Shown: piece after piece, positions 22,715-54,660 of the stretch | Layout of the letters: each line of letters starts with the position of its first letter | Position numbering within the stretch: the stretch's first letter is position 1 | Virus record (IMG/VR): IMGVR_UViG_3300027519_000002 | Reading direction: 5' to 3' (one strand) | DNA: 64,000 nt | Source of the DNA: a virus | Notes under the pieces: generated by a model | The model's input: only the letters and a program-made list of their open reading frames with translations | What the model was told of the DNA's origin: nothing | Database searches by the model: none | Program-made: the position numbers and the translations under genes

Positions 22715-22776
22715 TGGTTTCTCTTGTTTCTGAATTGATGAAAGCGCAGCAGGGCACGGAGGTGCCCAAACTACTC

Positions 22777-26018: not shown

Positions 26019-26441
26019 TTAGGGGTAGGCACTCCAAATAGAGTTTGCCATGGCGTATTGCTTACATCTTACTAGGTAAGGGTTAAGTAAGAAGTACGTT
26101 ACGCCTTTCTTAGTAGCTAACCCTAGCTGTCTTTGATGGTCACGTTTAAGTCGAACCATAAGACCAGCTTTAACGATCTTACTTACATAACGACTGTGAA
26201 GTTTGTAGGCCGTAGATTTACGGTCTTGTACTGATTCAGGCAATTCATACGAACACACATTATTTACGTAATTGTGCTTGCGTTTAATATTCAGAAAAAG
26301 TACTTGAGCGGCAGGGGGTAAACCCACAAGTGTATCAAGTAGATCAGGTGCAAATGAATTATTGTCCGTGCTCAGTGGACTGATCATTGCGAAAGGTGCG
26401 TGTGTGTTGGTTGCTTGGGCTAAAGACAACATACTCTCCAT
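26019..26441 (-). CDS. Hypothetical protein bordering the attP-like noncoding region.
   Basis: 140-aa ORF with no recognisable motif. Confidence 0.4.
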   Translation of the reverse strand: MESMLSLAQATNTHAPFAMISPLSTDNNSFAPDLLDTLVGLPPAAQVLFLNIKRKHNYVNNVCSYELPESVQDRKSTAYKLHSRYVSKIVKAGLMVRLKRDHQRQLGLATKKGVTYFLLNPYLVRCKQYAMANSIWSAYP

Positions 26442-26571: not shown

Positions 26572-26587
26572 CTGTACGGAGGTACAG
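26572..26587. promoter_or_regulatory. CTGTAC-GGAG-GTACAG hairpin. Fourth member of the short-loop hairpin family.
   Basis: Perfect 6-bp inverted repeat with a GGAG loop, in the noncoding region next to the integrase. Confidence 0.3.
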
Positions 26588-27125: not shown

Positions 27126-27146
27126 TTTCCTAATAAAATCAACAAC

Positions 27147-37887: not shown

Positions 37888-38427
37888 TTATGCCTTTAGC
37901 GTGTTAAGAATCAACTGCATCTTTAACAACTTCACGCCTTCGGCACTTTCCTCAAGGTACTGCGAAACCTCTATTTCATTCAGTGAAGGCTCAACACCGT
38001 CGATCTTCTCTGGTAGGGCTGGTTTCACACAATCGGGGAATAACAAATGTAAATCGGTGGAGTTACCTGCCTTGTTTAGCGTCTGGTTTATATAACCATT
38101 AACTTCATGTTGGCGGTAAGTGTGTCGCTCCCATTCGTCACTGTGGCCTTGAAACTCATCAACGAGTGAAGCGTGTAGTCTTCGTAATTGGAAGGGCTGT
38201 AGCTTTGCTAAGGAATGAATGAAAGGCTCTCCGCGAAATCTGAACCCGGCAACAGAGTCAGTTTTTTCCCTTTGAGCCAATGCAATTCTATCTACAACCT
38301 TTTGCCGCGATGCGTGGAACGCATCTAAAATTAATTGCTGAATTTGTTGTTGTGCCTGTACTTTCCAGTAGCGATTAGGCGACTGCTGATTTGAGTGCTG
38401 TTGCGATGTCAATGCGTGCTTCTCCAA
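37888..38427 (-). CDS. Hypothetical protein. N-terminal region overlaps the helicase gene, so the true start may be internal.
   Basis: 179-aa ORF. Confidence 0.35.
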   Translation of the reverse strand: MEKHALTSQQHSNQQSPNRYWKVQAQQQIQQLILDAFHASRQKVVDRIALAQREKTDSVAGFRFRGEPFIHSLAKLQPFQLRRLHASLVDEFQGHSDEWERHTYRQHEVNGYINQTLNKAGNSTDLHLLFPDCVKPALPEKIDGVEPSLNEIEVSQYLEESAEGVKLLKMQLILNTLKA

Positions 38428-41151: not shown

Positions 41152-42168
41152 TTACAGTAGGACAGACAGTTCTAGTGCTTTGTCCATGAACAATTGGTTC
41201 TCGGCAATGCGAGGGAAACGTCTGCTCATGTCACGAATTGTGATCACTTGGAACTCACGTGGCATACGGTTTACGTATGTAAGAAGTGCCGTAGCGTTAG
41301 TGCTAGTAACGTTGTCAGCTAGTACACCTGATAGGGCGTATAGTGTTCCACCGTTGTGACCAGGCATTAGGGCGCCATTAGGGTCTGCTTGAATTGCGCT
41401 GATCTTAGGTAGCTGATCAAAGACTTGGTTAAACGCGATAAATTCACGTGCCGGCCCTTCACCCAATGTACCTGCCAATAGCGGTAGCGCTGATGGACCT
41501 ACTTCGTCTAGCTGCTGCAATAACTTGCTTGCAAATTCCCATGTACGAGGACACGCAAACGTATAGTCTGTGTGGTCTGGGTCAAACATTTGTAGGCAGC
41601 TTGGCTTGTACTGAATGTACGATACGATGCGCGGGTCAAACTCTTGTTGCTGCGCGTATTCAATCCAATCAATAGTGCTTACTGTCAGTTCGATGTGAAT
41701 AAGGCGCGACTGCATTGCAGTACTAGCGCGGGAAGTAAATGCACCGTCTGACTCTAAGTTACCAGCGGCAACAATGAATACTGCAGGGTGAAGCTTACGG
41801 CCACCAACTGCGCGGTCTAGAATTAGCTTGTACGCTGCTTTCTGAACAGACTCAGGCGCGTGTGGTAGTTCATCAAGGAACAGAAGCCAACCTTCTTTAC
41901 CTTCAGGTAACTTGTCACCTTCAACAGGGAAGGTATCAAACGGAATGTATGTCGCTTTGTCATCTACAATTTGAGGGAAGCCCTTCAAATCTGTTGGGTC
42001 GCAGTTAGCTAAACGTTCATCGATAAGCGCCAAGTTAAAGTCTCTGGCTACGCTGGCAACGATGTCTGATTTACCTGTCCCTGGTGATCCATGAATCATA
42101 GGTACAAGGCCTGCGCGAAGTACTGTAGCAATCATATCTACAGCCGTACTGGGTTTTACTGCGTTCAT
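41152..42168 (-). CDS. MoxR-like AAA+ ATPase.
   Basis: Walker A HGSPGTGKSD, Walker B LLFLDE, arginine-finger region. 338 aa. Confidence 0.7.
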   Translation of the reverse strand: MNAVKPSTAVDMIATVLRAGLVPMIHGSPGTGKSDIVASVARDFNLALIDERLANCDPTDLKGFPQIVDDKATYIPFDTFPVEGDKLPEGKEGWLLFLDELPHAPESVQKAAYKLILDRAVGGRKLHPAVFIVAAGNLESDGAFTSRASTAMQSRLIHIELTVSTIDWIEYAQQQEFDPRIVSYIQYKPSCLQMFDPDHTDYTFACPRTWEFASKLLQQLDEVGPSALPLLAGTLGEGPAREFIAFNQVFDQLPKISAIQADPNGALMPGHNGGTLYALSGVLADNVTSTNATALLTYVNRMPREFQVITIRDMSRRFPRIAENQLFMDKALELSVLL

Positions 42169-42198: not shown

Positions 42199-42213
42199 GG
42201 GTACGGAGTACCC
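42199..42213 (-). promoter_or_regulatory. GGGTAC-GGA-GTACCC hairpin, candidate vRNAP-type hairpin promoter.
   Basis: Perfect 6-bp inverted repeat with a GGA loop, 30 nt upstream of the MoxR ATPase gene. Confidence 0.35.
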
Positions 42214-42218
42214 ATTAA

Positions 42219-42392
42219 TTACATTTCGAATCGCTCAAACTCAGTGTGGCTGGCGATAGCCAGAACACGGTGTTCTTGCTCATGTAGATATTCTTCGAAC
42301 TGTTGGTAGGCTTGGGGAACCGTTACGGCTCCCATGGTTTCGAACTCAAAGTTCTTACCGTCAATTGTGGCTTTACACAGATACTCGGTCAT
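42219..42392 (-). CDS. Small ORF (57 aa, MTEYLCKATIDGKNFEFETMGAVTV...). Not in the ORF track.
   Basis: ATG preceded by GAGGTAAC, TAA stop. Sits between the dNMP kinase and the ATPase. Confidence 0.3.
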   Translation of the reverse strand: MTEYLCKATIDGKNFEFETMGAVTVPQAYQQFEEYLHEQEHRVLAIASHTEFERFEM

Positions 42393-43005
42393 TTGCTGTT
42401 ACCTCGTACATATCGTCGGGTATGGCGTTGATCGCAAGTATCTGATTAAAGACGTTTATGATGTTGCGGTTGAAGTTAGGGTTCTTCGGATTAGGTACGA
42501 TGTAATCTGAGCCGTATGTTTGAATACCTTGTTCAGATTCGTGCATATCATCGCTCTCATAGGCAAAACCTATGGTTGGAATGACTTGGGCAATGTGGCC
42601 TTGCTTCTGGCCTCGGATATGCTCCGCTTCATTATCAAAACGCACATCAGTAACTAACACGATGTCAGTGTCTGAAAGGTCAATCTGTGCACCGGTAACG
42701 ATAAGCCAAAGGTTCCCATTTACCATGTCTCGGCCCCAATTGGTGCCAAGGGTTTGCATCAGGTAGCGAGGTGTTACGCCGAACTGTGGAATTACAGTCT
42801 CTTTGGCTTCCTGTGTTGCAAAGTGCTCATCGGTAAGGCCAAGGCCTACCTTGAGCATTTCTTTGATTGGGTCTGCATAGGCGAGCTCTGTTACCGTGTA
42901 ACCTGAGTCTTCTGCGTAGTTACGAATAATTGTCGCAGCGTAGTTTTTACCTGCGCCTTTCTGACCAGCAATACCTATAACAATAGGCTTTTTTACGGCT
43001 ACCAC
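42373..43005 (-). CDS. Deoxynucleoside monophosphate kinase (T4 gp1-like).
   Basis: P-loop GIAGQKGAGKN. YADPIKEMLK, PRYLMQTLGTNWGRD and VLVTDVRFDNEAEHIR mirror the T4 dNMP kinase segments as I recall them. Confidence 0.6.
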   Translation of the reverse strand: MVAVKKPIVIGIAGQKGAGKNYAATIIRNYAEDSGYTVTELAYADPIKEMLKVGLGLTDEHFATQEAKETVIPQFGVTPRYLMQTLGTNWGRDMVNGNLWLIVTGAQIDLSDTDIVLVTDVRFDNEAEHIRGQKQGHIAQVIPTIGFAYESDDMHESEQGIQTYGSDYIVPNPKNPNFNRNIINVFNQILAINAIPDDMYEVTANDRVSV

Positions 43006-43274
43006 GGGTCAACTGCTCCCCAGTTTAGTGACACGACACGAACTGTATCTTCGTCTTCGTCATCGGTCGGTATGACCTTCATGCCTGACTCGCTGTAGGA
43101 TGAGTCGGTTACTGCGGCAAAGTCTACTTCGTCTACAAGTATTGCTTGTTGCGTTCCGTTGCGATCACCATAAGACACGTTTGATACAACGAACATATCG
43201 TCTTCAAAGTTGTCTAGTTTTTCTTTAAGTTCTTTTACGGTGAGGCAACTTTCTTGTAATTTTTCTAATAACAT
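42999..43274 (-). CDS. Small acidic hypothetical protein.
   Basis: 91-aa ORF. Confidence 0.35.
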   Translation of the reverse strand: MLLEKLQESCLTVKELKEKLDNFEDDMFVVSNVSYGDRNGTQQAILVDEVDFAAVTDSSYSESGMKVIPTDDEDEDTVRVVSLNWGAVDPW

Positions 43275-43798
43275 TATGCTTCCTTTGCTTGAGGATGGAG
43301 TTCAATGAATTGATCAGTGAAGCTGTAAGTCTTGTCCTCGTTAACAGTGATGTAACCGCGTTCACGGGCTACCAGTAGCATTAAGCTCACAGTGGAACGG
43401 GACAGGTTTAACTCTTGCGCTATGCCTGTTGTACGTACTTTTCTGTTCTTACGCTTTACAGCAATAGACAAGCGGTATGGGTGCTCTATGATCATCAACT
43501 CAGTTCTGTCATAGCGCTCAATAGTACTTTCACTTCGCTCGTCAGGACGGGTAGTACGCTGCAGAGTGTGACGCAATACTGATTCTTTACGGGATTGTAC
43601 GCGCTCTTCAATGACCTTCTGGTCTGCGCCTTCTTTGATTTCACCACTGATGATAAATGCTTCGCCAGATGTAGTGTCAAAGGCAGTTAGCAGGGTCACA
43701 ACATCATCACGTAATTCACGTAATGTAATGGTTCGGCCTACTAACTCTGATAATTTGGTGGTCTTAAGACCTTTAATGCTGCTCACTTCATGCTCCAA
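43274..43798 (-). CDS. Hypothetical protein with a C-terminal HTH.
   Basis: 174 aa, containing LNLSRSTVSLMLLVARERGYITV. Confidence 0.4.
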   Translation of the reverse strand: MEHEVSSIKGLKTTKLSELVGRTITLRELRDDVVTLLTAFDTTSGEAFIISGEIKEGADQKVIEERVQSRKESVLRHTLQRTTRPDERSESTIERYDRTELMIIEHPYRLSIAVKRKNRKVRTTGIAQELNLSRSTVSLMLLVARERGYITVNEDKTYSFTDQFIELHPQAKEA

Positions 43799-43826
43799 AT
43801 AAAAAAGCCAGCGGTTAAGCTGGCTT
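43797..43826 (-). terminator. GCCAGC(ttaacc)GCTGGC plus TTTTTTATTT on the minus strand.
   Basis: Perfect 6-bp stem plus T-run after the 43815 gene stop. Confidence 0.55.
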
Positions 43827-44150
43827 GTTGTTGTTTAATTCTTTGATTCGTTCTTGAATCAACTCTAACTGGGTTTGAAACCTTTCTCTTAACTCGGCTT
43901 CACGGTCAATGGGTTCACCCATGACTTGCTCATGCAAGGCTTCATGTTCTGCTTGCATCTCCGTCCACTCGAACATTCCACGGATCTCACTTTCAGTAAG
44001 CTTTATGGAGTTACCGAAGTCAGTGACTACTGTGTAAATGTTGTTGAGTTTAGATGTGATAACCGCATTACCTATGCGGCCTGTGTAAAGGGGAACTAGT
44101 TTTAAACCAACGGTTAAGTTGAGAGGTAAGGGGATTGCTAGGCTACTCAC
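43815..44150 (-). CDS. Hypothetical protein.
   Basis: 111-aa ORF. Confidence 0.4.
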   Translation of the reverse strand: MSSLAIPLPLNLTVGLKLVPLYTGRIGNAVITSKLNNIYTVVTDFGNSIKLTESEIRGMFEWTEMQAEHEALHEQVMGEPIDREAELRERFQTQLELIQERIKELNNNKPA

Positions 44151-44460
44151 TGCACATGGTTCTATAAGCTTCTAACTTATAGATTTCAGAGAAAGCGTTA
44201 TCGAATGAAACTCTATGGCCGATTTCATCGCGCCAGTTGTCAGGGTCCATACATACTGCTGGCTTACCTGTTACAACAAATCCGCCTTTCATGCGAATGC
44301 CGCAGAACATCATCTGCTGACCTGAAAGTACGACAGTTTCGAAGTCTACGTCTTCAATACGATCAATGATGCTTTTGGACGAAATGAAGTTTTCATTACA
44401 ACCCATCTCTTTCATCATGGTTTCAATTTCTTGTGATCGTGTTGGTGCTACTATTGGCAT
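44143..44460 (-). CDS. Hypothetical protein.
   Basis: 105-aa ORF. Confidence 0.4.
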   Translation of the reverse strand: MPIVAPTRSQEIETMMKEMGCNENFISSKSIIDRIEDVDFETVVLSGQQMMFCGIRMKGGFVVTGKPAVCMDPDNWRDEIGHRVSFDNAFSEIYKLEAYRTMCSE

Positions 44461-44593
44461 GGTTTTCCTTAGTAATAAAGTGCTAACGAAATACCCACAA
44501 ACACACGATTGAAGCGGAATACTTCATGTGGTTGTAGGGTTATTTTTGGGCCACCTACCGTAGTAGGGAAGCCTGGGACTTTAGATTTTTGAG

Positions 44594-44770
44594 TCATTTG
44601 AATCTCTTAGGTCTGATGGAGTAAAACACACCATTATGCGGCAACGGAGAGCCGTCTTCGCGATGTGTTGCGTGGTGTCCAGCAGGGTACTGTTTCTTTA
44701 GGCCTTCAATGGCCTCGGGCGAGTAACCCTTCAAACCAAAAACCCTGTAGTTACTGGTTCGTTTTCTCAT
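44594..44770 (-). CDS. Small basic protein (start moved to MRKRTSNY, ATGA-coupled to the upstream gene).
   Basis: The 44594..44842 ORF overlaps the 44767..45186 gene. An internal ATG at 44770 removes the overlap. Confidence 0.3.
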   Translation of the reverse strand: MRKRTSNYRVFGLKGYSPEAIEGLKKQYPAGHHATHREDGSPLPHNGVFYSIRPKRFK

Positions 44771-45186
44771 TCCCGTTCCAGCGAAATTTTGTATTTGAAA
44801 TGGGCGTTGATTAATTCCAAGAGACGTTGTTGTGTTTTGCACGCTTGTACCTTGTCTTTAAGTAAATCTACGTAACCTAGCTTGCTTATGGCCGTGCAAT
44901 AATTCCTTCGCGAAGTCCTCATGAACTTCACCCGCACAGTGCTGTTATGCTCTGTCAGGTCAAGGATAACTCTTACCCTTCCCCCAATTTCCTCCCTTAT
45001 TTCGCCACGAGGCACTTCGACAAAAACTTCATCAAATATCCAATCAGGTTCGAACTCAGCTTCTTTCCACTTACTCTTCCTGACCGGCTTAACATCTGGT
45101 ATGTCGTCTTCACTCCAAATGTCGCTATACAAAGCTTCTGACTTCAGCCACTCAATAAGCTCTACTTTTGTACTGATCGTCTTCAC
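44767..45186 (-). CDS. Hypothetical protein.
   Basis: 139-aa ORF. Confidence 0.4.
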   Translation of the reverse strand: MKTISTKVELIEWLKSEALYSDIWSEDDIPDVKPVRKSKWKEAEFEPDWIFDEVFVEVPRGEIREEIGGRVRVILDLTEHNSTVRVKFMRTSRRNYCTAISKLGYVDLLKDKVQACKTQQRLLELINAHFKYKISLERE

Positions 45187-45413
45187 TTAAACTTTCCTTC
45201 TATCGCATTACGAACTTCATCAGCTATATTCTTCGCTGTTTCTGAGGGCATGGTGGAGCCATGCACGAAAGGCCACCAACGTTCTAGTACTTTCATAAGT
45301 GCAAGTTGCATAGCACTGTTGTGCTTGATTAGCTTCTGATGTTCTTCGACTTGAATTTGGATGATTTGGACAAGCTCTTTACGGCTCTTGTCTTCAATTG
45401 AGTGGATTGACAC
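45183..45413 (-). CDS. Small hypothetical protein.
   Basis: 76 aa. Confidence 0.35.
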   Translation of the reverse strand: MSIHSIEDKSRKELVQIIQIQVEEHQKLIKHNSAMQLALMKVLERWWPFVHGSTMPSETAKNIADEVRNAIEGKFK

Positions 45414-45415
45414 TT

Positions 45416-45613
45416 TTAATGACTCGCTTTGTAGGTGGTATCTACTATGTGGGGTGTGGTAGATATAAGTTCGTATTCAAGCTTGTAAACATGAACTTCA
45501 CCTACATTCACTAGACCATCTTCGAACAGTGCTTGGGGTACTTGTTCCCAGGAGGTAACGCCTTTTAAAATACGTTCACCTAGTAAGGTCTTAACTTTGA
45601 AGACTACCATCAC
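45416..45613 (-). CDS. Small hypothetical protein.
   Basis: 65 aa. Confidence 0.35.
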   Translation of the reverse strand: MMVVFKVKTLLGERILKGVTSWEQVPQALFEDGLVNVGEVHVYKLEYELISTTPHIVDTTYKASH

Positions 45614-46050
45614 TCTTGCTCCTTGCGTAGTTGTTCTCTGTGGTAATTACAGAAGTTTTTGAGAAGCATATCGAGATGGTTTGCGCGTATATCTAATTTG
45701 TCGTGGTTAAACATATAATCGCTCGCGCTAGAAACCATCTTACTCAACAGGTCAATCTTCTTCTCTATGGCGAATTTGTTAAGCAGTGCTTTCGACTCGG
45801 TGTTGTCTATCTCAAATAGACGCTCAATAGCTGCACCCATATCCATATCAACCAACTCGCAACAGGATTCCACATTGGCAGCTAACTCAAGGTTAGTTTG
45901 CTCTAGACTTTTTACACGCTCATTAGCCTTTGATAGTAGTGCATCCACAAACTCATAAACATACGGGTTTAAATCCATTTCGCCGCTCGGCTGTTGTTTC
46001 AGTTTGAAACCGTTGGATAAAGCTAATTCTCTTACTCGCTTCTTGTTCAT
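45610..46050 (-). CDS. Hypothetical protein. Start at ATG 46050 (AAGGAG SD) rather than GTG 46059.
   Basis: ORF with AAGGAG 8 nt upstream of MNKKRV. Confidence 0.4.
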   Translation of the reverse strand: MNKKRVRELALSNGFKLKQQPSGEMDLNPYVYEFVDALLSKANERVKSLEQTNLELAANVESCCELVDMDMGAAIERLFEIDNTESKALLNKFAIEKKIDLLSKMVSSASDYMFNHDKLDIRANHLDMLLKNFCNYHREQLRKEQE

Positions 46051-46218
46051 CACTCTCACTCCTTAAAGGTAGATCTCTTTTGGACAATGCTCACTTAAAG
46101 GTATGAAGTGTGAGAATTGGTACTTGCCAGCGTTGTAGACGCACTCATTAATTTGAGTTCCGTCTACTGCCACTTGGTTAACAAAAAATAAGGTTAAAAG
46201 TACCTTCATACATTACCT

Positions 46219-46641
46219 CTACTGTATTCTTTGAATTTCTTCGTTTAGATAAAGCGTACCGCGAGTACACTTAATACCGGATGGGTAGGGTATAGCTACC
46301 TCGCGCTCAACGTTTGTAGGCCAGCTCTCAGGCATTTTGCCGCTACCTACTATCTTGACCTTCTCTCCAACCTTCCAAGGGCTTCTGGCTTCCCAGAATG
46401 CCGCTTTACCCATGTAGTGTAGGGCAACAAGTTGGCAGGTAGATCTAACTTCGAATAGCTGTCTTAGCTTTGATGTCATGGCTTTGACTGCTGCTTCAGT
46501 AATGTGAAGTTCTTCTGACATTTCACGGCAGGTTCTGCCTATGATTACTAGGTCATAAACGCGCTGCTGCGCTCTAGTTAAAGTCATAGCTGTAACCACA
46601 TTCTTCGTAGTCAACGGAGCCTCTGGTATTAAAACCAGCAC
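46219..46641 (-). CDS. LuxR/GerE-type HTH transcription regulator.
   Basis: LTRAQQRVYDLVIIGRTCREMSEELHITEAAVKAMTSKLRQ is a classic LuxR C-terminal-type HTH. The true start is possibly the internal MTLTRAQQ. Confidence 0.5.
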   Translation of the reverse strand: MLVLIPEAPLTTKNVVTAMTLTRAQQRVYDLVIIGRTCREMSEELHITEAAVKAMTSKLRQLFEVRSTCQLVALHYMGKAAFWEARSPWKVGEKVKIVGSGKMPESWPTNVEREVAIPYPSGIKCTRGTLYLNEEIQRIQ

Positions 46642-46843
46642 GAACTAACTTTGGTGTAATACTGTAGCCACCGTGAACACCAACCGCATGATAGACAAAG
46701 CCGTCGATACACACTTCTTTAGTGCGTTCGGAGAAGTCTTCCATTTGTAAAACTGAGTTGTGTCCGTAGCTTTGGCTCTTAGGCTGACAAGCCGCTAGAG
46801 CCATTACTGATAAAAGGGTGATTAGCTTAAGCTGCTTCTTCAT
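46574..46843 (-). CDS. Small lipoprotein (signal peptide plus lipobox LAAC).
   Basis: N-terminus MKKQLKLITLLSVMALAACQPK, about 89 aa. Confidence 0.45.
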   Translation of the reverse strand: MKKQLKLITLLSVMALAACQPKSQSYGHNSVLQMEDFSERTKEVCIDGFVYHAVGVHGGYSITPKLVRAGFNTRGSVDYEECGYSYDFN

Positions 46844-46872
46844 AAGGCGAGTTCTCTAATTAAATAAAAGTT

Positions 46873-46946
46873 AGTCACCTTGGGAATTGAACCCTATGAC
46901 ACTCCTGCGCAATTACCCTGCTCGTAGCACGCTGTCTAGGTGACTG
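46873..46946 (-). tRNA. tRNA-like gene (acceptor AGTCACC/GGTGACT, T-loop GTTCAATT).
   Basis: Perfect 7-bp acceptor pairing and a canonical T-arm on the minus strand. The internal arms could not be folded by hand. Confidence 0.45.
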
Positions 46947-46953
46947 TTGAAAT

Positions 46954-47032
46954 TGGCCCCAATGCAAGGATTCGAACCTCGTAGTCAAGTAATGAACTGA
47001 ACTTGAACCATACCATTTAACGTCCATGCCGT
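46954..47032 (-). tRNA. tRNA-like gene with an encoded CCA end (…GGTTCGAATCCTTG-CATTGGG-G-CCA).
   Basis: T-arm CGAGG/TTCGAAT/CCTTG followed by a 7-nt acceptor strand, discriminator and CCA. The 5' boundary is approximate. Confidence 0.35.
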
Positions 47033-47104
47033 ACTTTTCTTACTCGCTGCCATGGATGATCATAAGCTGTTGCGGCTGTAACGCGGTTCACATTGGGAAT
47101 AAAA

Positions 47105-47185
47105 TTGGCCGACTGGGGAGGATTCGAACCAACAACTTAAACTACACTTACACTAGTCACTGAGGACACGCATCACTCATCACCT
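47105..47185 (-). tRNA. tRNA-like gene with an encoded CCA end (…GGTTCGAATCCTCC-CCAGTCG-G-CCA).
   Basis: T-loop consensus and CCA are present. Stem complementarity is imperfect and boundaries are approximate. Confidence 0.3.
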
Positions 47186-47581
47186 AGCTTGTCGTCTTCA
47201 TTTAAGTCTACTCTTGCCATGACTCTCTCTGTTTCGTTGTGCTTACGCAGTCTCTCGATGCGTGTGGGTCGAAAGACAAACAGAAATTGAGCGAGTACCA
47301 GTCGTTTTGAAAAGGATGTTTTGGCAGATGTACCTACTGTTTATTTGTGACAGACAGTATAACTATTGGTTAAATAGAAATGGTGTAAGTACATCTCCAA
47401 AACACCCGTAGTTCCGCGTTAAAAAACGTGGGGTGTTTGGCCTGTTGTGCCTTGCGTAGCAAGAATACGCGCAGGAACGATTTATTAAAGTGAGTTCGTC
47501 ACCTCACCGGCACTAACCAGTACAGTATGGAGCGGAGCAGCTAGACATTACTGTACTGAGTATTTATGAATTGGGTTGCGC

Positions 47582-47665
47582 TCTTAGGCGACTGGACTCG
47601 AACCAGTAGTTCTACCTCTTATCCATTCACCAGATTTACATACACCTTGTAAGGAAGCTATCCGA
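47582..47665 (-). tRNA. tRNA-like gene (T-arm ACTGG/TTCGAGT/CCAGT).
   Basis: Perfect T-arm on the minus strand. The acceptor stem is not resolved by hand. Confidence 0.3.
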
Positions 47666-47672
47666 ACATGAA

Positions 47673-47760
47673 GCGTGTAAGTCGGGAATCGAACCCGATT
47701 AGTGCACCATGCACCTAAGAACGACTTTTACGTATCATCCCGTGTCAAGTAAGAGTACTC
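47673..47760 (-). tRNA. tRNA-like gene (T-arm TCGGG/TTCGATT/CCCGA).
   Basis: Perfect T-arm on the minus strand. The acceptor stem is not resolved by hand. Confidence 0.3.
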
Positions 47761-47879
47761 AGTTAAGCCACGGAAGATATGTAACATGGTTAGAGAACCC
47801 ACCACTTAGGTCACTTTCAAACAGCCTTCCGAGCGTGTTATTCAGTTGAGGATTGACCTTATGGTGCGTTCTCTAATTA

Positions 47880-48449
47880 CTAACGTATACGCATCTCGGC
47901 ATCATCGATGCCCGATGCGCCACGCGATGTTTCTTCAAGCTGTTCTACTTCAACCAATGGTAGGTTGCTGTATGTACGCTCAATAACAATCTGTGCGACT
48001 TTATCGCCTTTAAAGAACTCTACTGTCTCTTGGCCTAAGTTAATTAGGTTGATCTTGATTTCACCTGTGAAAGGCTTATCAATGATTCGTGCCATTACAG
48101 CAATGTTCTTCTTACTCGCTATCTTAGAGCGATTAGAGATACGTCCGTAAAAGCCTTTAGGCAACTGCATTGCAATACCAGAAGGCAGTACACATGATTT
48201 ACCTGGAGGCAGGACAACTGACTCCATTGTCTGCAGATCTAGTCCAGCATCATCTTCATGGGCCATTGAAGGCATAGCAGCGTCAGGATGACGCTTTACC
48301 ACTTTGATGTGAGGTGCAAAAGCCGCAATCAAGCGCTCTTCCGCTTCAGTGTAGTCAATTTTCAGCGGTTCCAAATCAGCTTGGTTAAGGCGTAATTCCA
48401 TTGTAGCGATGTTATCGCCGTGGGTGTTTTCTTGTTTGATGTCTGTCAT
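47880..48449 (-). CDS. dCTP deaminase/dUTPase-family protein.
   Basis: AGLDLQT...GKSCVLPSGIAMQLPKGFYGRISNRSKIASK follows the dCTP deaminase/dUTPase motif pattern (GxD, R-S-K). Confidence 0.5.
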   Translation of the reverse strand: MTDIKQENTHGDNIATMELRLNQADLEPLKIDYTEAEERLIAAFAPHIKVVKRHPDAAMPSMAHEDDAGLDLQTMESVVLPPGKSCVLPSGIAMQLPKGFYGRISNRSKIASKKNIAVMARIIDKPFTGEIKINLINLGQETVEFFKGDKVAQIVIERTYSNLPLVEVEQLEETSRGASGIDDAEMRIR

Positions 48450-48712
48450 TACTCTTCTTCTTCGTTGTCAGGACAATCAGGGTTAATACAAACCAAATCA
48501 GGCTCTAAACTATCGCCCTGCGGTATGAGTTCATTGTCACAAGCTAGGCAACGCCCGAACTCAGGTGAGTAATCGGGACTATGAGGATTGTTGCTTTCGT
48601 GTGGCATGTGCTCTGGGTAGTACATTAGTTCGTCCTCTGCGGTGTAAGACCACGCTGAGAACAGTAAAAGAAATGGAACAGTGTTCTTAATGAACGGGTG
48701 TATGGATTTCAT
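48449..48712 (-). CDS. Small secreted Cys-rich protein (signal peptide).
   Basis: N-terminus MKSIHPFIKNTVPFLLLFSAWSYTA and six Cys in 87 aa. Confidence 0.4.
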   Translation of the reverse strand: MKSIHPFIKNTVPFLLLFSAWSYTAEDELMYYPEHMPHESNNPHSPDYSPEFGRCLACDNELIPQGDSLEPDLVCINPDCPDNEEEE

Positions 48713-49061
48713 GGAGTATCACCATCTTTCCTGCTTCAGCGAATTTGTCTTGTATTGCTTCAGCTTCTACCTGAGTCATGTTTTCCAGTTCAGGTATTTC
48801 ATCTTGATCTGGTATAACGACTTTCCAAGCACTAGATTCATAGTACTTTGATTCCATCAGGCATAAGCCAGTCGAACGAACTACCGGAGGTAGTCCTAAT
48901 TTACTGGCTAAACGGTAATGAATACGTGAGTCTGGTGTCCCATCTAAGTGTTTTGCGTTGGTTTCAATTCCAACTACAACTAACTTACGCCATATATGGT
49001 ATGGCTTGTAGGTGACAGTATCACCTACGGTAAACTCAATTTCACGCTGCATTGCTGTCAA
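48687..49061 (-). CDS. Hypothetical protein.
   Basis: 124-aa ORF. Confidence 0.4.
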   Translation of the reverse strand: MTAMQREIEFTVGDTVTYKPYHIWRKLVVVGIETNAKHLDGTPDSRIHYRLASKLGLPPVVRSTGLCLMESKYYESSAWKVVIPDQDEIPELENMTQVEAEAIQDKFAEAGKMVILHEIHTPVH

Positions 49062-49851
49062 AGTCCAGGGACTTACTGAACAGGAAACGCTGCTTTTCTT
49101 TCTTCACTGGACCACCGTTAATGAAGTACTGGTGAAGTAGGGTAGTGATAGCGCGATAGCCAAGAGTGTTGTTCTCGTAGCCTTCTGTTAGTGACTCTTC
49201 TAATGAGGCCTCTACGTCTTTGCGCTTAATCTTGGGGAACAGTTCCAAGTACATTGAAAGCAGTTCAGACTCTTTCATGGCTTGAATGAGTTCAGATAGC
49301 TTTATCTTGTCTGTGTTGTAGACAAGGCCTACACGCCCTAAGAACTCTGTCTTAATGCCCAGTTCACGTAGTCTGTCTAAGTCAATGCCTTCTTCGCCAT
49401 TGAAAGCGCCAGCAAAGATGAACAGTACGTTCTTGCATGAGACTGTGTTGTAGTGTCCGTAGCTACCCATAACTGAGGTAGTAGCTGCTTCCAAGATCTT
49501 CAAGAACTCGTTCTGAACACCGTTGGTAGTCTCATGTGCTATCTCTGAGTTAGAGTTACCACTAATGAATAGCTTGTCGAACTCGTCTACAAATACGACT
49601 GTCTGCCCAAGCTGCATGTTCTCTAGCGGCACTAGTGCCTTGGATAAACTGTTACCGCTTGTACCTTCTTTGGTTAGCTGCGCTGCGTTGATCTCAAGGA
49701 AGTTTACGCCATACTTGTCAGCCATTTGCTCGACTGTCCAAGTCTTACCAGAGCCTGAAGGCCCGGTGAAGATGAAATGTGGGCGTATGTTAGCCTTACT
49801 CGACACAAAGATTTTAAAGATGCGGTTTAGCTCTTCTGCGTGTTTAAGCAT
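49042..49851 (-). CDS. ClpX/HslU-like AAA+ ATPase (no N-terminal zinc-binding domain). Start moved to MLKHAEEL.
   Basis: Walker A GPSGSGKT, Walker B VVFVDEFDKL. GVQNEFLKILE...VLFIFAGAF parallels the ClpX GVQQALLKLIEG...ILFICGGAF segment as I recall it. Confidence 0.6.
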   Translation of the reverse strand: MLKHAEELNRIFKIFVSSKANIRPHFIFTGPSGSGKTWTVEQMADKYGVNFLEINAAQLTKEGTSGNSLSKALVPLENMQLGQTVVFVDEFDKLFISGNSNSEIAHETTNGVQNEFLKILEAATTSVMGSYGHYNTVSCKNVLFIFAGAFNGEEGIDLDRLRELGIKTEFLGRVGLVYNTDKIKLSELIQAMKESELLSMYLELFPKIKRKDVEASLEESLTEGYENNTLGYRAITTLLHQYFINGGPVKKEKQRFLFSKSLDFDSNAA

Positions 49852-50062
49852 CGTGATTCCTTTTGAGAGTTTCACTGACTGTCTCCACCACGGTGTTGTG
49901 ATAGTAGTCAATGGCTTCTGAAATAGTGTGTTTACTGGGGTTTTCCATAATGCTTTTGTAAGCATGTTCACGTGCTTCTTCTAAGCTATCAGCGTGAGCA
50001 ACAACATGGATTTTTAGACTGTCTACAGTCTCGATTGGGGTGATTTCTTCTGGGTTTAGCAT
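49844..50062 (-). CDS. Small hypothetical protein.
   Basis: 72-aa ORF just downstream of the GGA-loop hairpin at 50131. Confidence 0.4.
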   Translation of the reverse strand: MLNPEEITPIETVDSLKIHVVAHADSLEEAREHAYKSIMENPSKHTISEAIDYYHNTVVETVSETLKRNHDA

Positions 50063-50130
50063 ATCGTGGTTACATAGTCGGAATACCTCGTTTTCGAAAA
50101 CTTAGTATATCGGTTTAACAATTCACACTA

Positions 50131-50145
50131 GTGCACGGAGTGCAC
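50131..50145 (-). promoter_or_regulatory. GTGCAC-GGA-GTGCAC hairpin, candidate vRNAP-type promoter.
   Basis: Perfect 6-bp inverted repeat with a GGA loop. Shares about 30 nt of flanking sequence with the copy at 53264, including TTCATCTAAGAAAAA. Confidence 0.4.
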
Positions 50146-50156
50146 ACTATTCATCT

Positions 50157-50186
50157 AAGAAAAAAGAAAGCCCCGAAGGGCTTTCG
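50157..50186 (-). terminator. AAAGCCC(cgaa)GGGCTTT plus TTTTTTCTT on the minus strand.
   Basis: Stem-loop plus U-run directly after the RNAP II large-subunit gene stop. Confidence 0.6.
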
Positions 50187-51374
50187 TTATGACAATGCGT
50201 ATTCAGCACTGGCGATTTGAGATACCACGTTACCTAGCTTGGGTATGTGGTAGTTTGAGCCATGTATTTCAGACAAGATATCTGCTAACAGGTCAGAGTG
50301 AGCCAGTTGCTTAAACATCTCAACATAGTGCTCGCGCATGAAGTTCACGTAATTAGCGTGACACTTGAACTCGTCATGTACACACTTCACTGGGAATGGT
50401 TTATGAGCCAATGTCTTGCATATCAAGCGATGCAGTTCAACTAGGTTCTCTGCATAGTCAGACATGATGATTTCATGGTCATGTAGCATGGTAGCCATAC
50501 GTAGTGATACGAACTCGTTGCTAGGGTTGGTCTTCCCGTTCTTAGCCCAATAGTTCTCAATCATGTATTTAACACGCTTAAGTTCTTGTGGGTTGTAGTT
50601 ACAACGTCTGTTCATCTCACGCACCAACATACCGTCAATGCTGTGAATGACGTTAGCTGCGATAGATAGGCCTGACTCTTGACCAGCTTTAACTTCGAAG
50701 CGGTGCGTAAAGGTAGCGTGATCTAACTCATCTACTTCAATACGCTTATCTTGCTTCTCCATAACAGGACATACAGCAACGAAACCATCAGGTAATGACC
50801 ATGAATGTTCGTCTGCGTATGGTTGCCAAGCACCTAATAGATGTTCCATGGCGATTGTGGCACCAAGTGCTACATCTTTCAGTGACTCGTAGAACGCTGC
50901 TAGTTCAGGCGTATCTTCACCGAATACCTCTTTAGGTTGCATAGTAGAGCCGTAGAAGTGAGTCATAAGTGCTGACTTAACAGCCTTACGTACAACCTTC
51001 ACATTGATGTGCGGTGAGTTGTTCATTACACCAGTTACATCAGTATAGATATCTGCTCGACGACCAGTATTGATAAGGCCTGTAGACTTACAGGTAATCT
51101 CGCAATTCATCAGTGCACCCATGATTTGAACACCAGACGAACAAGCGTCTAGGCCAACCATGAAGCCTGATGGTCTACCTGCTTCAGCATCTTCAAGTGC
51201 TAATAGAGCACCAAGGTAGATAGCAGGTTCATCAGCGTCTTCAACTAAGGCATGAAGTTCTTCCATAGTTTTCGCTTCAACCCATTTAATACGGTCTTCA
51301 AACAACTCTTTGTCTAGGCCAAATGCGTTTGCGATTGCGATTTTGATGTACTGTTTACCAGTGAAATGTTGCAT
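50187..51374 (-). CDS. Phage RNA polymerase II catalytic (large) subunit, N4 gp16-like, T7-type.
   Basis: Motif A VGLDACSSGVQIMGA (T7 DGSCSGIQ), motif B VRKAVKSALMTHFYGS (R-x3-K-x7-YG), motif C VKCVHDEF (T7 HDSF). Confidence 0.75.
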   Translation of the reverse strand: MQHFTGKQYIKIAIANAFGLDKELFEDRIKWVEAKTMEELHALVEDADEPAIYLGALLALEDAEAGRPSGFMVGLDACSSGVQIMGALMNCEITCKSTGLINTGRRADIYTDVTGVMNNSPHINVKVVRKAVKSALMTHFYGSTMQPKEVFGEDTPELAAFYESLKDVALGATIAMEHLLGAWQPYADEHSWSLPDGFVAVCPVMEKQDKRIEVDELDHATFTHRFEVKAGQESGLSIAANVIHSIDGMLVREMNRRCNYNPQELKRVKYMIENYWAKNGKTNPSNEFVSLRMATMLHDHEIIMSDYAENLVELHRLICKTLAHKPFPVKCVHDEFKCHANYVNFMREHYVEMFKQLAHSDLLADILSEIHGSNYHIPKLGNVVSQIASAEYALS

Positions 51375-51398
51375 AACTAAATCCTCATATAGTTGGAT

Positions 51399-51421
51399 GC
51401 AGCAGCCGTGCGTTAGCGTAG
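51399..51421 (-). promoter_or_regulatory. Early-promoter-like hairpin motif, copy 1 (CAGCC-GTGCGTTAGCGTA-GGCTG), followed by the TATGAGGATT box.
   Basis: Carries the shared GCGTTAGC core and sits 25 nt upstream of the RNAP II large-subunit ATG. Confidence 0.35.
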
Positions 51422-51505
51422 GCTGCGTGGTTTATCTTAAGTGAATCGGGACACCCCAGTTTAGTGGGTCATTGGGGTCGAACGGGTCAAGCCCATTACT
51501 GCCCG

Positions 51506-51787
51506 TTAGGGCTTTTTTGACTTGTTGAGCTCCATGGCAGCGTTCCAACCTGCTTCATAGGCTTCTTCTGATTGGTAATCATTAGGGAAGTCAGATCCTT
51601 GAATGTACAAGTTATAACTTTCTTCCCATGGCTCTGGCTTTACGCGCCATGTGAGTTTGGGTCTACGTATAGGGTTATAGTCGGCACTATCCATATCTTC
51701 GTAAGTACCTTGCGTACTTAGGTACTGAATCTTTTTACCTTCAGATAATGCGGCTAGTGCCTCTAGCTGGTTAAGTTGTCTACTCAC
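51506..51787 (-). CDS. Hypothetical protein.
   Basis: 93-aa ORF. Confidence 0.4.
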   Translation of the reverse strand: MSRQLNQLEALAALSEGKKIQYLSTQGTYEDMDSADYNPIRRPKLTWRVKPEPWEESYNLYIQGSDFPNDYQSEEAYEAGWNAAMELNKSKKP

Positions 51788-52028
51788 TCAGTAGTTCCTC
51801 AATAGCGTCAAGCTTTGATTGGTCTGCCTGACGTTGCTCTTCAAGGATTGCAGTAACAGCATTGAGGTAACGGTCACACTCTGCTTGTAGCTTGGCGTAG
51901 TACTCCATGTCTTTGTCAGACTCCTGATAAGAAGCATCAATCAACCACCGATTAGGGTTACTTCTAATCATGCGCAAGGTGTTTCCAATATTTCTTGCGC
52001 GATTACTCATATCACTATATTTACTCAT
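51780..52028 (-). CDS. Hypothetical protein (82 aa). The internal ATG with a GGAGGT SD is preferred over the TTG start at 52151.
   Basis: GGAGGT lies 5 nt upstream of ATG 52028. The upstream part of the tracked ORF is overlapped by a better small ORF in another frame. Confidence 0.4.
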   Translation of the reverse strand: MSKYSDMSNRARNIGNTLRMIRSNPNRWLIDASYQESDKDMEYYAKLQAECDRYLNAVTAILEEQRQADQSKLDAIEELLSE

Positions 52029-52185
52029 CTTTACCTCCGATTGGTGAGTACCACGCCTTAACTCGACAGGCGTTATGAGCGGTAAACAGTTTCGTATAAT
52101 CACTTGGTTTACCTCCATGTTTTTTAGCCCTTTCAGTAGCACTTGGAACAAGCTTTATGGGTTTGTTGCAGTAGGTGCAGTTCAT
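52021..52185 (-). CDS. Small zinc-ribbon-like protein (MNCTYCNKPIKL...HNACRVKAW), 54 aa. Not in the ORF track.
   Basis: ATG overlaps the stop of the upstream small ORF (ATGA). Its stop overlaps the ATG of the next gene. CxxC...H..C pattern. Confidence 0.35.
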   Translation of the reverse strand: MNCTYCNKPIKLVPSATERAKKHGGKPSDYTKLFTAHNACRVKAWYSPIGGKDE

Positions 52186-52319
52186 ACTTCGACTACCTCT
52201 TTAATGCTTGGGTAAGACTGCGATCGCCACCAGTGCCGCAGTGCGGCTTCTGATGTGAAATCGTAAATTCCTTGGTGATGTGCAGGGTCATTACCCCAAA
52301 TAACGTGAAAGGTTTTCAT
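52182..52319 (-). CDS. Small ORF (45 aa, MKTFHVIWGNDPAHHQG...). Not in the ORF track.
   Basis: AAGAGG/GAGGG SD 6-9 nt upstream. Translationally coupled to the zinc-ribbon ORF. Confidence 0.3.
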   Translation of the reverse strand: MKTFHVIWGNDPAHHQGIYDFTSEAALRHWWRSQSYPSIKEVVEV

Positions 52320-53242
52320 CCCTCAATTACCTCTTTCTCTGCGAACTCAACGATTGCTTTACGGAATTGGTTGCCCTGAGTGGACACGTGATAACCCTGA
52401 GCATAAGTACGCCCACGTTTATCTACTTTATGTCTCTCATAGAACTCATTACCTACTTGGATTAGGTCACGATACGTTCTGTATGAGTCTGTAACGAACG
52501 TTAACCACTGACGCTTGGTATCTGCATCCATATCAGGGTTCTTCGGTGTCTCGCTCAATCTGGTGAGTATTCTTTCATTCAGACACAAAGGTACTGAATT
52601 GAATAGGTTGATTGAGTCCAAGCAAATGTCTTCGTCATGGTGAGTACCTTTACCTAAAATCATGGATGATTTCTCGGTAAGTAAGTCGTTATCGAAGTTA
52701 CGCGTAACAACGTTAGGCCGCACCACCATTGGTGGGAGATACTTAGTTTCGTGAATGTGCTTCATCACTTGTTCACTAAGTTCAATGTTGTTAATTAGGT
52801 ATAGAACAGCACCTTCATCACTATCGATTTTGTCGATATCGAAGTAGTCATGTTCTGACATAACAGCCATGATCTCGGCTGTAGTCACAATACCCTCATA
52901 CTTGTCTGACATCTTAAGCACGCCAGCACACTGACCTACGATTGAGGTGAACTCAACAGGGTCTGTAAGTACTGATGTCTGACATAAGATTTCATTTACC
53001 ACTACCTCCATATCTCTCTCATGGAGTTGGGCTAATCTTGCCTCTTTTGAGTGGTAATAATCACCATGTAGCCATTGCGTCAGAGCGTCAGCGGTAGACG
53101 CAATAAGGTCTATCATTGACTGTTCAGCAGTAAGGTCATTCAGTATGACTTTGTTAATCTGCTTCTTGCTGTGCTTGGTTTCTACGTAACGCTGGTAATC
53201 AACTAAATTCATGTGGCTCATCTGTCTGCTCGCTCTTTTCAT
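52316..53242 (-). CDS. Probable RNAP II small (N-terminal-domain-like) subunit, N4 gp15 position.
   Basis: 308-aa ORF two genes upstream of the catalytic subunit, preceded by a GGA-loop hairpin. Assignment by synteny only. Confidence 0.35.
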   Translation of the reverse strand: MKRASRQMSHMNLVDYQRYVETKHSKKQINKVILNDLTAEQSMIDLIASTADALTQWLHGDYYHSKEARLAQLHERDMEVVVNEILCQTSVLTDPVEFTSIVGQCAGVLKMSDKYEGIVTTAEIMAVMSEHDYFDIDKIDSDEGAVLYLINNIELSEQVMKHIHETKYLPPMVVRPNVVTRNFDNDLLTEKSSMILGKGTHHDEDICLDSINLFNSVPLCLNERILTRLSETPKNPDMDADTKRQWLTFVTDSYRTYRDLIQVGNEFYERHKVDKRGRTYAQGYHVSTQGNQFRKAIVEFAEKEVIEG

Positions 53243-53263
53243 CTACGTCCCGTAAGGGACACA

Positions 53264-53278
53264 CTGCACGGAGTGCAG
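53264..53278 (-). promoter_or_regulatory. CTGCAC-GGA-GTGCAG hairpin, candidate vRNAP-type promoter.
   Basis: Perfect 6-bp inverted repeat with a GGA loop, 22 nt upstream of the 53242 start codon. Flank CTCTCATCTAAAAAT is conserved with the 50131 copy. Confidence 0.4.
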
Positions 53279-53328
53279 CTCTCATCTAAAAATCAGTTAA
53301 GAAAAGTAAAAGGGCCGAAGCCCTCTAC

Positions 53329-53530: not shown

Positions 53531-53550
53531 CCATTACTGCGCGTTAGCGC
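53531..53550 (-). promoter_or_regulatory. Early-promoter-like motif, copy 2 (CCATTACT-GCGC-GTTA-GCGC).
   Basis: 20-nt conserved motif with a 4-bp stem and a 4-nt loop. Confidence 0.4.
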
Positions 53551-53736: not shown

Positions 53737-54129
53737 TTAAGCAGTTTGCTGCATTAACTCTTTCAACTTAGATGTCTTTTCATCTGTTTCAGTTGATTCT
53801 TCTTCTTGGGCTTTGCCAAGCATCGCACCGATATCAAGCGCATTATCATCAAGCTGTTCTTGAACGTGGACGTTCTTAACTTTGATAACTAACTCTGTTG
53901 AGTCTTCAGGGTTATCAAGCATGTAGTTATGCAGTGCTTGCATTTGCGTTGAAGGGTTTTCAGTGCGGTTAAGTGAGATACCTACACGTGAAAGTGGAAT
54001 AACAACACCATTAGGCAAATGTGCCTCAAGGTTCGCAAAACCGTCTGAACGCTGTTGTTGACCGCGTGAACGGTTGTTAGCGATTGCAGGGTTAGAACGT
54101 AGAGCGTTGCGGTTTACTAATTTAGCCAT
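53737..54129 (-). CDS. Hypothetical early protein with a basic N-terminus. Start at MAKLVNRN.
   Basis: ORF with the TATGAGGATT box 9 nt upstream of ATG 54129. Confidence 0.4.
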   Translation of the reverse strand: MAKLVNRNALRSNPAIANNRSRGQQQRSDGFANLEAHLPNGVVIPLSRVGISLNRTENPSTQMQALHNYMLDNPEDSTELVIKVKNVHVQEQLDDNALDIGAMLGKAQEEESTETDEKTSKLKELMQQTA

Positions 54130-54408: not shown

Positions 54409-54660
54409 TTAGTAGTAAATAATATTCCTATTAGGGACGATTTGAGAATCGACACCTCTACCTACAAGGTGACGTAGTGCTTGGAAAGCACGGTCACTAT
54501 ACTTACATATTGTTGATACACCATCCTTGGTAATACCCCTTACAAATAACCTAGTGCTTGTACCTTGTGAGTACACTCGTAACATTTCACCTGAGTCGGT
54601 AGTGATAACTTCAACGTCACAATGTGCTGCTAGTACAGACAGGTTAATAACTAACTTCAT
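54409..54660 (-). CDS. Small early protein.
   Basis: 83-aa ORF. The motif lies 30 nt upstream of its ATG. Confidence 0.4.
   Translation of the reverse strand: MKLVINLSVLAAHCDVEVITTDSGEMLRVYSQGTSTRLFVRGITKDGVSTICKYSDRAFQALRHLVGRGVDSQIVPNRNIIYY

Follow-up and report, generated by a model that had tools for sequence, protein, structure and literature searches.

The 64,000-nucleotide (nt) stretch of viral DNA in IMG/VR record IMGVR_UViG_3300027519_000002, analyzed here at its full length and called the window, belongs to a temperate N4-like (Schitoviridae) phage of Alteromonas, and carries perfect hairpins with a GGA loop ahead of several of its leftward genes. Are these hairpins promoters, and if so, which of the RNA polymerases encoded by the phage reads them? 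A sequence-only reading had quoted three of them, GGGTAC-GGA-GTACCC (42199-42213), GTGCAC-GGA-GTGCAC (50131-50145) and CTGCAC-GGA-GTGCAG (53264-53278), which are exact in letters and coordinates, as is the related CTGTAC-GGAG-GTACAG at 26572-26587. The three were correctly placed directly upstream of minus-strand genes, with 31 (42199), 69 (50131) and 22 nt (53264) between the low-coordinate edge of the hairpin and the start codon, and correctly assigned to the template strand, the GGA being on the + strand, which is the template of these minus-strand genes. The flank described as common to 50131 and 53264 is also real (CACAC ... TGCACGGAGTGCA ... TCATCTAARAAAA); its 3′ part is due to the T-tract tails of the terminators at 50166-50185 and 53309-53326.

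The family extends further, with additional members at 22752 (GGAG), 25967 (GGAG), 38309, 48279, 48880 and 54477. A scan for perfect hairpins with a stem of at least 6 base pairs (bp) and a GGA loop found seven on the + strand (38309, 42199, 48279, 48880, 50131, 53264 and 54477) and none on the minus strand; 300 dinucleotide-preserving shuffles averaged 0.17 such hairpins and never had more than 2. Three + strand hairpins have a GGAG loop (22752, 25967 and 26572). All ten, referred to below as class B, lie within 22.7-54.5 kb on the template strand of leftward early/middle genes. Six occupy intergenic positions shortly before a start codon (25967 is counted as start-codon-proximal after correction of the gene start to ATG 25933), and four lie inside open reading frames (ORFs).

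The sequence-only reading had proposed a search for the hairpins in related genomes; carried out here, this search found them again at syntenic gene junctions. Two relatives, L001 and L002, came from a viral-contig scan and are ~80% identical in nucleotides, and others (L011-L020) from an exact-protein look-up of gp15-like and Sak4-like homologs, with 60-88% protein identity. These genomes harbor GRA(N)-loop hairpins on the template strand at the same junctions, namely upstream of the gp15-like gene, after the gp16-like gene, upstream of the MoxR gene and upstream of the Sak4-like gene (the last compared by hand, as the MAFFT alignment misplaced them). The stems of orthologs differ yet still pair, and the loop stays G-R-A(N). 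Over 19 hairpins, changes occur on both sides at all six stem positions, with the GGA invariant; because the members were picked as perfect hairpins, this count is circular as a percentage paired and shows only stem variation against a fixed GGA. The closing pair is C:G in 6/10 window members and in 32/43 hairpins of the clade. A conserved asymmetric center, free arms and a fixed orientation speak against a duplex operator and for a hairpin whose loop is read. The suggested likeness to N4-type promoter hairpins on the template strand is supported: the loop and, in most members, the closing pair are kept, stems covary, orientation is strict, and the hairpins stand just ahead of genes and, at 50131 and 53264, just past terminators.

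The hairpins also share a one-sided flank motif. With positions counted from the loop center, and the 5′ flank of the hairpin corresponding to downstream for transcription, the ten window hairpins carry A8 in 9/10, A17 in 9/10 and C14 in 7/10 cases (binomial P 3e-5, 3e-5 and 2e-3, respectively). In 48 non-redundant hairpins from the clade and from phage LUZ7, A8 is found in 42, A17 in 37 and C14 in 33, compared with 25-33% (A8), 32% (A17) and 18% (C14) for the same bases in 204 control hairpins with other loops. When the search was made blind to the loop (stem of at least 6 bp plus A8, C14 and A17), nine template-strand sites were recovered, seven of them with GGA or GGAG loops; the other strand gave two sites with unrelated loops. 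Six sites combine C14 with an assigned downstream start codon; a start at C14 would leave 5′ untranslated regions (UTRs) of 24-62 nt at five of them and of 124 nt at the sixth, 26572. The predicted transcripts begin with G (GAUUA at three sites), and a Shine-Dalgarno sequence is present in the three UTRs that were read out (22752, 25967 and 42199).

The class B hairpins are probably hairpin promoters for a phage RNA polymerase, and the function, start site and polymerase that we infer for them would combine as follows. The GGA/GGAG hairpins would extrude as single-stranded DNA on the template strand of the leftward early/middle genes; a phage-encoded polymerase of the T7 family would read the G-R-A(N) loop and the C:G closing pair, with the stem playing a purely structural part; and the first RNA nucleotide would be a G, paired with a template C ~14 nt beyond the loop center in the direction of transcription. 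The corresponding template-strand consensus, 5′ to 3′, would be A17-n-K-C14-R-n4-A8-[6-bp stem]-GRA(N)-[stem]-C. As to the polymerase, we lean slightly towards the heterodimeric RNA polymerase II (RNAPII; 52316..53242 + 50187..51374), which has been proposed to read the hairpin middle promoters of LUZ7. RNAPII is favored because of the middle-region spread of class B, the presence of C14 rather than of CCA at 11, the LUZ7 parallel, and the existence of a better candidate class for the virion RNA polymerase (vRNAP), namely the CCA-N9-GWTA hairpins of the leftmost early region, which would serve that enzyme. Overall, extruded template-strand hairpin promoters read by RNAPII, with a separate class for vRNAP, appear to be the best explanation, and a fairly probable one.

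Three of the intergenic members have GGAG loops and precede genes of the replication region. GGGCAC-GGAG-GTGCCC (22752..22767) has its edge 38 nt from the start codon of the Sak4-like gene (21989..22714) and a predicted +1 at C22745; its orthologs, GGGCAT-GGAG-ATGCCC, GGGCGC-GGAT-GCGCCC, GGGGC-GGAT-GCCCC and GCCACC-GAAG-GGTGGC, have covarying stems. GTGCGG-GGAG-CCGCAC (25967..25982; predicted +1 C25960) lies 34 nt from ATG 25933 of an exonuclease-like gene, and an identical hairpin is found between homologous genes in L018. CTGTAC-GGAG-GTACAG (26572..26587; predicted +1 C26565) is upstream of a 140-residue gene (26019..26441) and adjoins a putative attP, with the orthologs CTGTAC-GGAC-GTACAG in L018, AAAGCGC-GGAT-GCGCTTT in L016 and GCAACC-GAAC-GGTTGC in L020. 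Upstream of the gene pair for a MoxR-like ATPase and a VWA-like protein, GGGTAC-GGA-GTACCC (42199..42213; predicted +1 C42192) is identical in L002, and CCCTAC-GGA-GTAGGG occupies the same junction in L012 and L013.

The two remaining intergenic members border the RNAPII genes. GTGCAC-GGA-GTGCAC (50131..50145; predicted +1 C50124) is 21 nt past the terminator of the RNAPII operon and upstream of a small gene (49844..50062), with orthologs in L011 (GTGTGC-GGA-GCACAC), L012 (CTGGAC-GGA-GTCCAG), L014 (CTGTGC-GGAT-GCACAG) and L015 (GCTACC-GAAC-GGTAGC). The segment 50043-50210, which comprises the terminator, this hairpin and the 5′ UTR of 49844..50062, shows nearly 100% identity to L001, where the background is ~80%; the UTR displays no obvious Shine-Dalgarno sequence near the ATG. 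CTGCAC-GGA-GTGCAG (53264..53278), with its edge 22 nt from the start codon of the RNAPII small subunit, has its C at 11 (53260) and not at 14; its orthologs are CTGCGC-GGA-GCGCAG (L011), GCGTTC-GGA-GAACGC (L012), GTGCGC-GGA-GCGCAC (L014) and GCCACC-GAAC-GGTGGC (L015). Between this hairpin and the gp15-like start codon is a further stem-loop, GTCCC-GTAA-GGGAC (53247-53260; CCCC-GAAG-GGGG in L001), and an N4-like start at C53260 would put the RNA 5′ end exactly at its base.

Among the members inside ORFs, GTGCTT-GGA-AAGCAC (54477..54491; ORF 54409..54660, early region) likewise has C at 11 and not at 14. Its counterpart in L001, GTGCAT-GGA-ATGCAC, shows an exact compensatory double change; in L011 the hairpin was looked for and not found. 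It lies ~100 nt before a strong hairpin at 54357-54383, a perfect 12-bp stem-loop (GGGATATAGGGT-GTA-ACCCTATATCCC) in an AT-rich stretch, with T-rich tails on both strands, which is conserved with covariation (a 15-bp stem in L012, an 11-bp stem in L015) and has the appearance of a bidirectional terminator; an RNA started at hairpin 54477 and ended there would be ~100 nt long. ACTACC-GGA-GGTAGT (48880..48894; ORF 48687..49061; predicted +1 C48873) also shows an exact compensatory double change in L001 (ATTACC-GGA-GGTAAT) and is identical in L011. AGCGTCA-GGA-TGACGCT (48279..48295), inside a dUTPase/dCTP-deaminase-like gene, has the full flank motif (C48273) and is identical in L012 and L013, with one template-strand G.T pair each in L001 and L011; its function is uncertain because coding constraint is inseparable from selection on the hairpin. 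GATGCGT-GGA-ACGCATC (38309..38325), inside a gp38-like ORF upstream of the DNA polymerase gene, is atypical in that it is without A8, C14 and A17, but it sits in a 34-nt block that is 100% conserved in L002, every third codon position included, against ~75% in the flanks. The three members with C at 11 (53264, 54477 and 38309) might form a subclass.

The sequence-only reading had also raised the idea of two hairpin classes, and two are indeed present. The second, class A, follows the pattern CCA-N9-G(T/A)TA with 4-6 bp stems, again on the template (+) strand, and is confined to 51.4-56.0 kb, with members at 51501-51512, 53539-53550, 54185-54198, 54699-54710, 55473-55488 and 55988-55999 and looser variants at ~51410 and ~55150. 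Each precedes a small ORFan gene, and the class is restricted to the leftmost ~4.6 kb of the early region. In relatives, the loop and the CCA are kept and the stems change (TGTGC-GATA-GCACA, AAGCCC-GATA-GGGCTT, AAAGCC-GTTA-GGCTTT). Class A is presumably the 'seven-copy motif family' of the sequence-only reading and likely represents the early promoters of vRNAP, the position, short stem and CCA initiator resembling those of N4 and LUZ7 early promoters. Five early genes share a ribosome-binding motif (TATGAGGATT in the sense direction, AATCCTCATA on the + strand) at 51380, 53488, 54136, 55112 and 55434.

Several observations weigh against reading class B as RNAPII promoters. Some of them would suit the alternative that the GGA hairpins are early promoters of vRNAP, of the N4 P1-P3 type, an alternative that we regard as unlikely. 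The template 5′-C-GGA-G-3′ is identical to N4 -9C, -10G, -11G, -12A and -13G (PMC4496689), so that loop and closing pair are exactly those of the N4 vRNAP promoters P2 and P3; the position of P3 ahead of gp15 is syntenic with that of 53264 ahead of the gp15-like gene; 38309, 53264 and 54477 lack C14 and have their C 11 nt from the loop center, as in N4; and a transcript from 53264 would span both RNAPII subunit genes before reaching the terminator at 50185. However, the lowest hairpin, at 22.7 kb, is over 30 kb away from the early end, and vRNAP would have to transcribe far into the replication region, whereas the N4 model confines such promoters to the injected end. The CCA-N8 initiator of all three N4 promoters is absent, C14 is present in 7/10 members, like in the GGA hairpins of LUZ7, and the separate CCA-N9 family, found only at 51.4-56.0 kb, suits vRNAP better. 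The likening of the GGA hairpins to N4 P2 as a possible vRNAP class, made by the sequence-only reading, is not supported as stated, on the same grounds, the GWTA family with its CCA at N9 being the better match to N4 and LUZ7 early promoters. Further points against RNAPII promoters are that four of the ten members are inside ORFs, where coding constraint could explain the conservation of 48279; that the family is absent from distant relatives (MoxR 43-46% identity) and from N4 itself; that the equation of the four GGA hairpins of LUZ7 with the published middle promoters, drawn from shape and from transcription start site (TSS) spacing, is indirect; and that tblastn and BLASTP searches for a homolog of the cofactor Drc/gp2 returned nothing significant. 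A 130-residue early protein (53737..54129, - strand), whose gene is preceded by a class A hairpin and a strong ribosome-binding site, contains a motif, sDGFANL..LPnG..IP.SRvGI, that aligns weakly to LUZ7 Drc (hhalign E=0.02, 26 columns) and to N4 gp2; its AlphaFold (AF2) model has a pLDDT of 46, and it is a candidate RNAPII cofactor.

Hairpins in or near 5′ UTRs could also act in the mRNA, as stem-loops (loop UCC or NUYC) serving as stabilizers, processing sites or operators for a translational regulator, and covariation alone cannot separate DNA from RNA pairing. Such a role nevertheless seems improbable: on the template strand, the conserved loop is of the type d(C-GNA-G), the hairpins have no Rfam match, and an RNA starting at C14 would not include the hairpin of its own site. 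The only imperfect orthologs, those of 48279 in L001 and L011, have a template-strand G.T, equivalent to C.A in RNA, which, being two cases, is a weak argument; a wobble test on one-mismatch hairpins gave four matches against seven on the control strand and, apart from the two template-strand G.T cases at 48279, does not tell DNA from RNA pairing. A role as terminators is at odds with the lack of a U-tract and with the true terminators just upstream. That the sites might be double-stranded palindromic operators for a dimeric repressor comes to mind for a phage that encodes an integrase and has integrated prophages as relatives, and for inverted repeats ahead of genes, but it is very improbable. 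The arms are not conserved and covary freely among paralogs and orthologs, the reverse of what half-sites of an operator would do; it is the asymmetric center that is conserved, in a single orientation in 10/10 window members and in the same one in relatives, and the one-sided flank motif (A17, C14, A8) is asymmetric too. Chance inverted repeats or by-products of coding, which the four members inside ORFs, and 48279 in a conserved enzyme gene, might bring to mind, are effectively refuted for the family by the seven hairpins observed against 0.17 expected, the complete strand bias, the compensatory changes at orthologous sites and the common flank motif, and are conceivable for the intragenic 48279 and 38309. 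The preferred reading is still that of hairpin promoters read by RNAPII.

Class B hairpins were also considered as terminators, and rejected as they have no T-tract and have genuine terminators next to them. These rho-independent terminators, both acting on the - strand, are at 50166..50185, ending the RNAPII operon immediately before hairpin 50131, and at 53309..53326, immediately before hairpin 53264, at distances of 21 and 31 nt, respectively. Sigma-70-like promoters were rejected as well: such sites are depleted (8 observed at 41.9-56.3 kb vs 27.5 +/- 5.9 expected from shuffles), and none is in the right orientation beside a hairpin.

The early and middle (replication) block consists of the minus-strand genes between ~56.1 and 19.6 kb, which encode, among others, a DNA polymerase, a primase, a Sak4-like protein and a MoxR-like ATPase accompanied by a VWA-like protein. 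The + strand bears the late genes, and also the 3551-residue vRNAP (8914..19569), which matches the N4 virion RNA polymerase. The RNAPII small subunit (52316..53242, - strand; N4 gp15-like) has a best match of 39% identity among isolated phages and is ~36% identical, among the matches listed, to its counterparts in LIT1 and Pa2, which are LUZ7-related Pseudomonas phages. The large subunit (50187..51374, - strand) is N4 gp16-like and of the T7 type, the Pfam family RNA_pol being recorded on its homologs. The MoxR-like ATPase (41152..42168, - strand) belongs to phrog_1297, with a weak AAA_5 match, and is followed by the VWA-like DUF2201 protein; the small gene 49844..50062 (- strand) has no family match, and a comparison with LUZ7 gp23 revealed no similarity. 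A tyrosine integrase is encoded at 27147..28400.

The closest relatives were located in Alteromonas and Salinimonas genome assemblies, two of which are complete chromosomes; relatives among L016, L018, L019 and L020 are integrated in the chromosomes of Salinimonas marina and Alteromonas sp. RKMC-009. In integrated relatives, host genes abut the homolog of gene 26019..26441, which makes the AT-rich gap at 26442-27146 the probable location of attP. Lysogeny has previously been described for N4-like viruses (PMC10654107). A near-identity DNA search of isolated phages gave a single 200-nt match, to AD45 alterophages, and no close relative; a metagenome scan with the gp16-like protein gave one match, to a distant 1.9-kb contig, and a genome-contig scan with the primase gave none.

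Two further regions are of note. A gap of ~850 nt (47028..47879) has no ORF of at least 50 codons, and scans revealed no tRNA or Rfam family in it; 47093-47563 is 89% identical to L001 against a background of ~80%, and 47430-47635 matches, at 81-85%, a segment without annotation in AD45-P1 to P4, which are N4-like phages of Alteromonas. This gap could hold a non-coding RNA or a replication origin. At 56017-56027 and 56120-56228, a run of about ten G adjoins the divergent junction between early (-) and late (+) genes, and the physical end of the genome may be close by.

The promoters proposed here are further members of a kind of hairpin promoter that is already known. To our knowledge, N4-like middle promoters have been mapped in a single phage other than N4, LUZ7, at four sites. 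The window and its relatives add ~40 comparable hairpins conserved in gene position, which define a consensus (loop, closing pair, A8, C14 and A17) along with natural loop variants, and which make the choice of polymerase directly testable on oligonucleotide templates. Since the loop drifts between lineages (GGA, GGAT, GAAC), its co-variation with polymerase residues could reveal how a minimal T7-like RNA polymerase reads a hairpin. The annotation also amounts to a transcription-unit map for an uncharacterized temperate schitovirus, and, as prophage induction brings no injected vRNAP, raises the question of how the cascade starts.

The N4 vRNAP promoters P1-P3 (Haynes & Rothman-Denes 1985; Glucksmann 1992; Gleghorn 2008; reviewed in PMC4496689) are contacted on the template strand at -9C, -10G, -11G, -12A and -8G (PMC4496689); they use d(C-GNA-G), an unusually stable DNA mini-hairpin, and hairpin extrusion has been argued to restrict them to the injected end (PMC4496689). 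Applied to N4, the scan used for the window found P1 at 90-102 (GAA loop), P2 at 557-573 (AAGAAGC-GGA-GCTTCTT, in agreement with the P2 hairpin given by the sequence-only reading) and P3 at 4546-4562 (AAGCTGC-GGA-GCAGCTT), directly upstream of gp15; all three read CCA-N8-GRA, placing +1 at 11 nt from the loop center. In the N4 middle region, the same scan found nothing comparable to class B. Window and N4 hairpins are alike in being template-strand hairpins with a 5-7 bp stem of free sequence and a 3-nt G-R-A loop, which in the window is closed by C:G in 6/10 members: seven window members have a 6-7 bp stem and a GGA loop, and three have the 4-nt GGAG. They differ in that the window has ten hairpins spread over 32 kb, from 54.5 down to 22.7 kb and thus not confined to the early end, and in that N4 has CCA with +1 at 11 nt after an A-tract, whereas the window has C at 14 together with A8 and A17; the CCA-N8 initiator was found in 0/10 window hairpins, with C at 11 in three and at 14 in seven. 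Position -8, G in N4, is A in core class B members and not conserved. As to the polymerase, of the N4 vRNAP contact residues K114, R119, W129, D901 and R904, D901 appears as V and R904 as L in an alignment that does not take in the N-terminal recognition element and, at 21% identity, is unreliable.

For LUZ7, ONT-cappable-seq defined early and middle classes of hairpin promoter (Putzeys et al. 2022; PMC9163698). The early promoters have a stem of at least 4 bp, a 3-nt loop and a G start 13-14 nt from the hairpin center, and include a tandem pair 33 nt apart before Drc; the middle class comprises four GC-rich hairpins (stem ≥6 bp, loop 3-4 nt) whose G start lies ~15 bp further downstream, and was attributed to LUZ7 RNAPII with Drc (PMC9163698). 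In our scan of LUZ7, positions 792, 3663 and 3695 carry C-GTA-G hairpins whose CCA is 13-14 nt away; those at 3663 and 3695 are 32 nt apart and precede gp14. From their sequence, we take these hairpins to be the LUZ7 early promoters. Class A resembles the early (vRNAP) promoters of LUZ7 and LIT1 in its 4-6 bp stems, a conserved loop closed by C:G, a CCA ~12-14 nt from the loop center and confinement to the early region, and differs from LUZ7 in its loop (the 3-nt GTA in LUZ7, the 4-nt GTTA or GATA in the window).

Intergenic GGA hairpins with stems ≥6 bp number exactly four in the same scan of LUZ7 (8238, 9521, 35252 and 39354); C14 and A8 are present in 4/4, and in shape and start-site spacing the four fit the middle promoters as published. 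The hairpin at 8238 (GCGTTC-GGA-GAACGC) follows just after the RNAPII large-subunit gene, and that at 39354 (GCCGCT-GGA-AGCGGC) is upstream of the Sak4-like gp64. Class B differs from the LUZ7 middle promoters in belonging to another host and clade, that of a temperate Alteromonas phage, in having ten copies in the window against four reported, some of them in the early region and inside ORFs, in its loop variants GGAG, GGAT and GAAC within the clade, and in that the TSSs of LUZ7 were mapped whereas those of the window are predicted. The likeness lies in the hairpin itself, which contains GC and has at least 6 bp in the stem and 3-4 nt in the loop (10/10 window hairpins), in a template C, giving G in the RNA, that lies ~14-15 nt beyond the loop center in the direction of transcription (7/10, as a sequence proxy), and in a middle-region location, 22752, 25967, 26572 and 42199 preceding replication/middle genes. 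With the GGA hairpins of LUZ7, class B shares the loop, an A at the stem base and the flank TAATCR-n3-GA, the sequences being nearly the same for one LUZ7 hairpin (gTTAATCGAAAGA in LUZ7, aTAATCGCAAGA and TTAATCGCCAGA in the window), as well as two junctions, one following the gene for the RNAPII large subunit and one ahead of the Sak4-like gene. It is conceivable, although we advance this tentatively, that a GRA(N) hairpin with A8, C14 and A17 constitutes a conserved promoter of the heterodimeric RNAPII, common to LUZ7 and to the temperate N4-like prophages of Alteromonadaceae. If so, an RNAPII that reads hairpins would be a widespread trait of Schitoviridae, perhaps an ancestral one, and the AT-rich middle promoters of N4 would be the exception.

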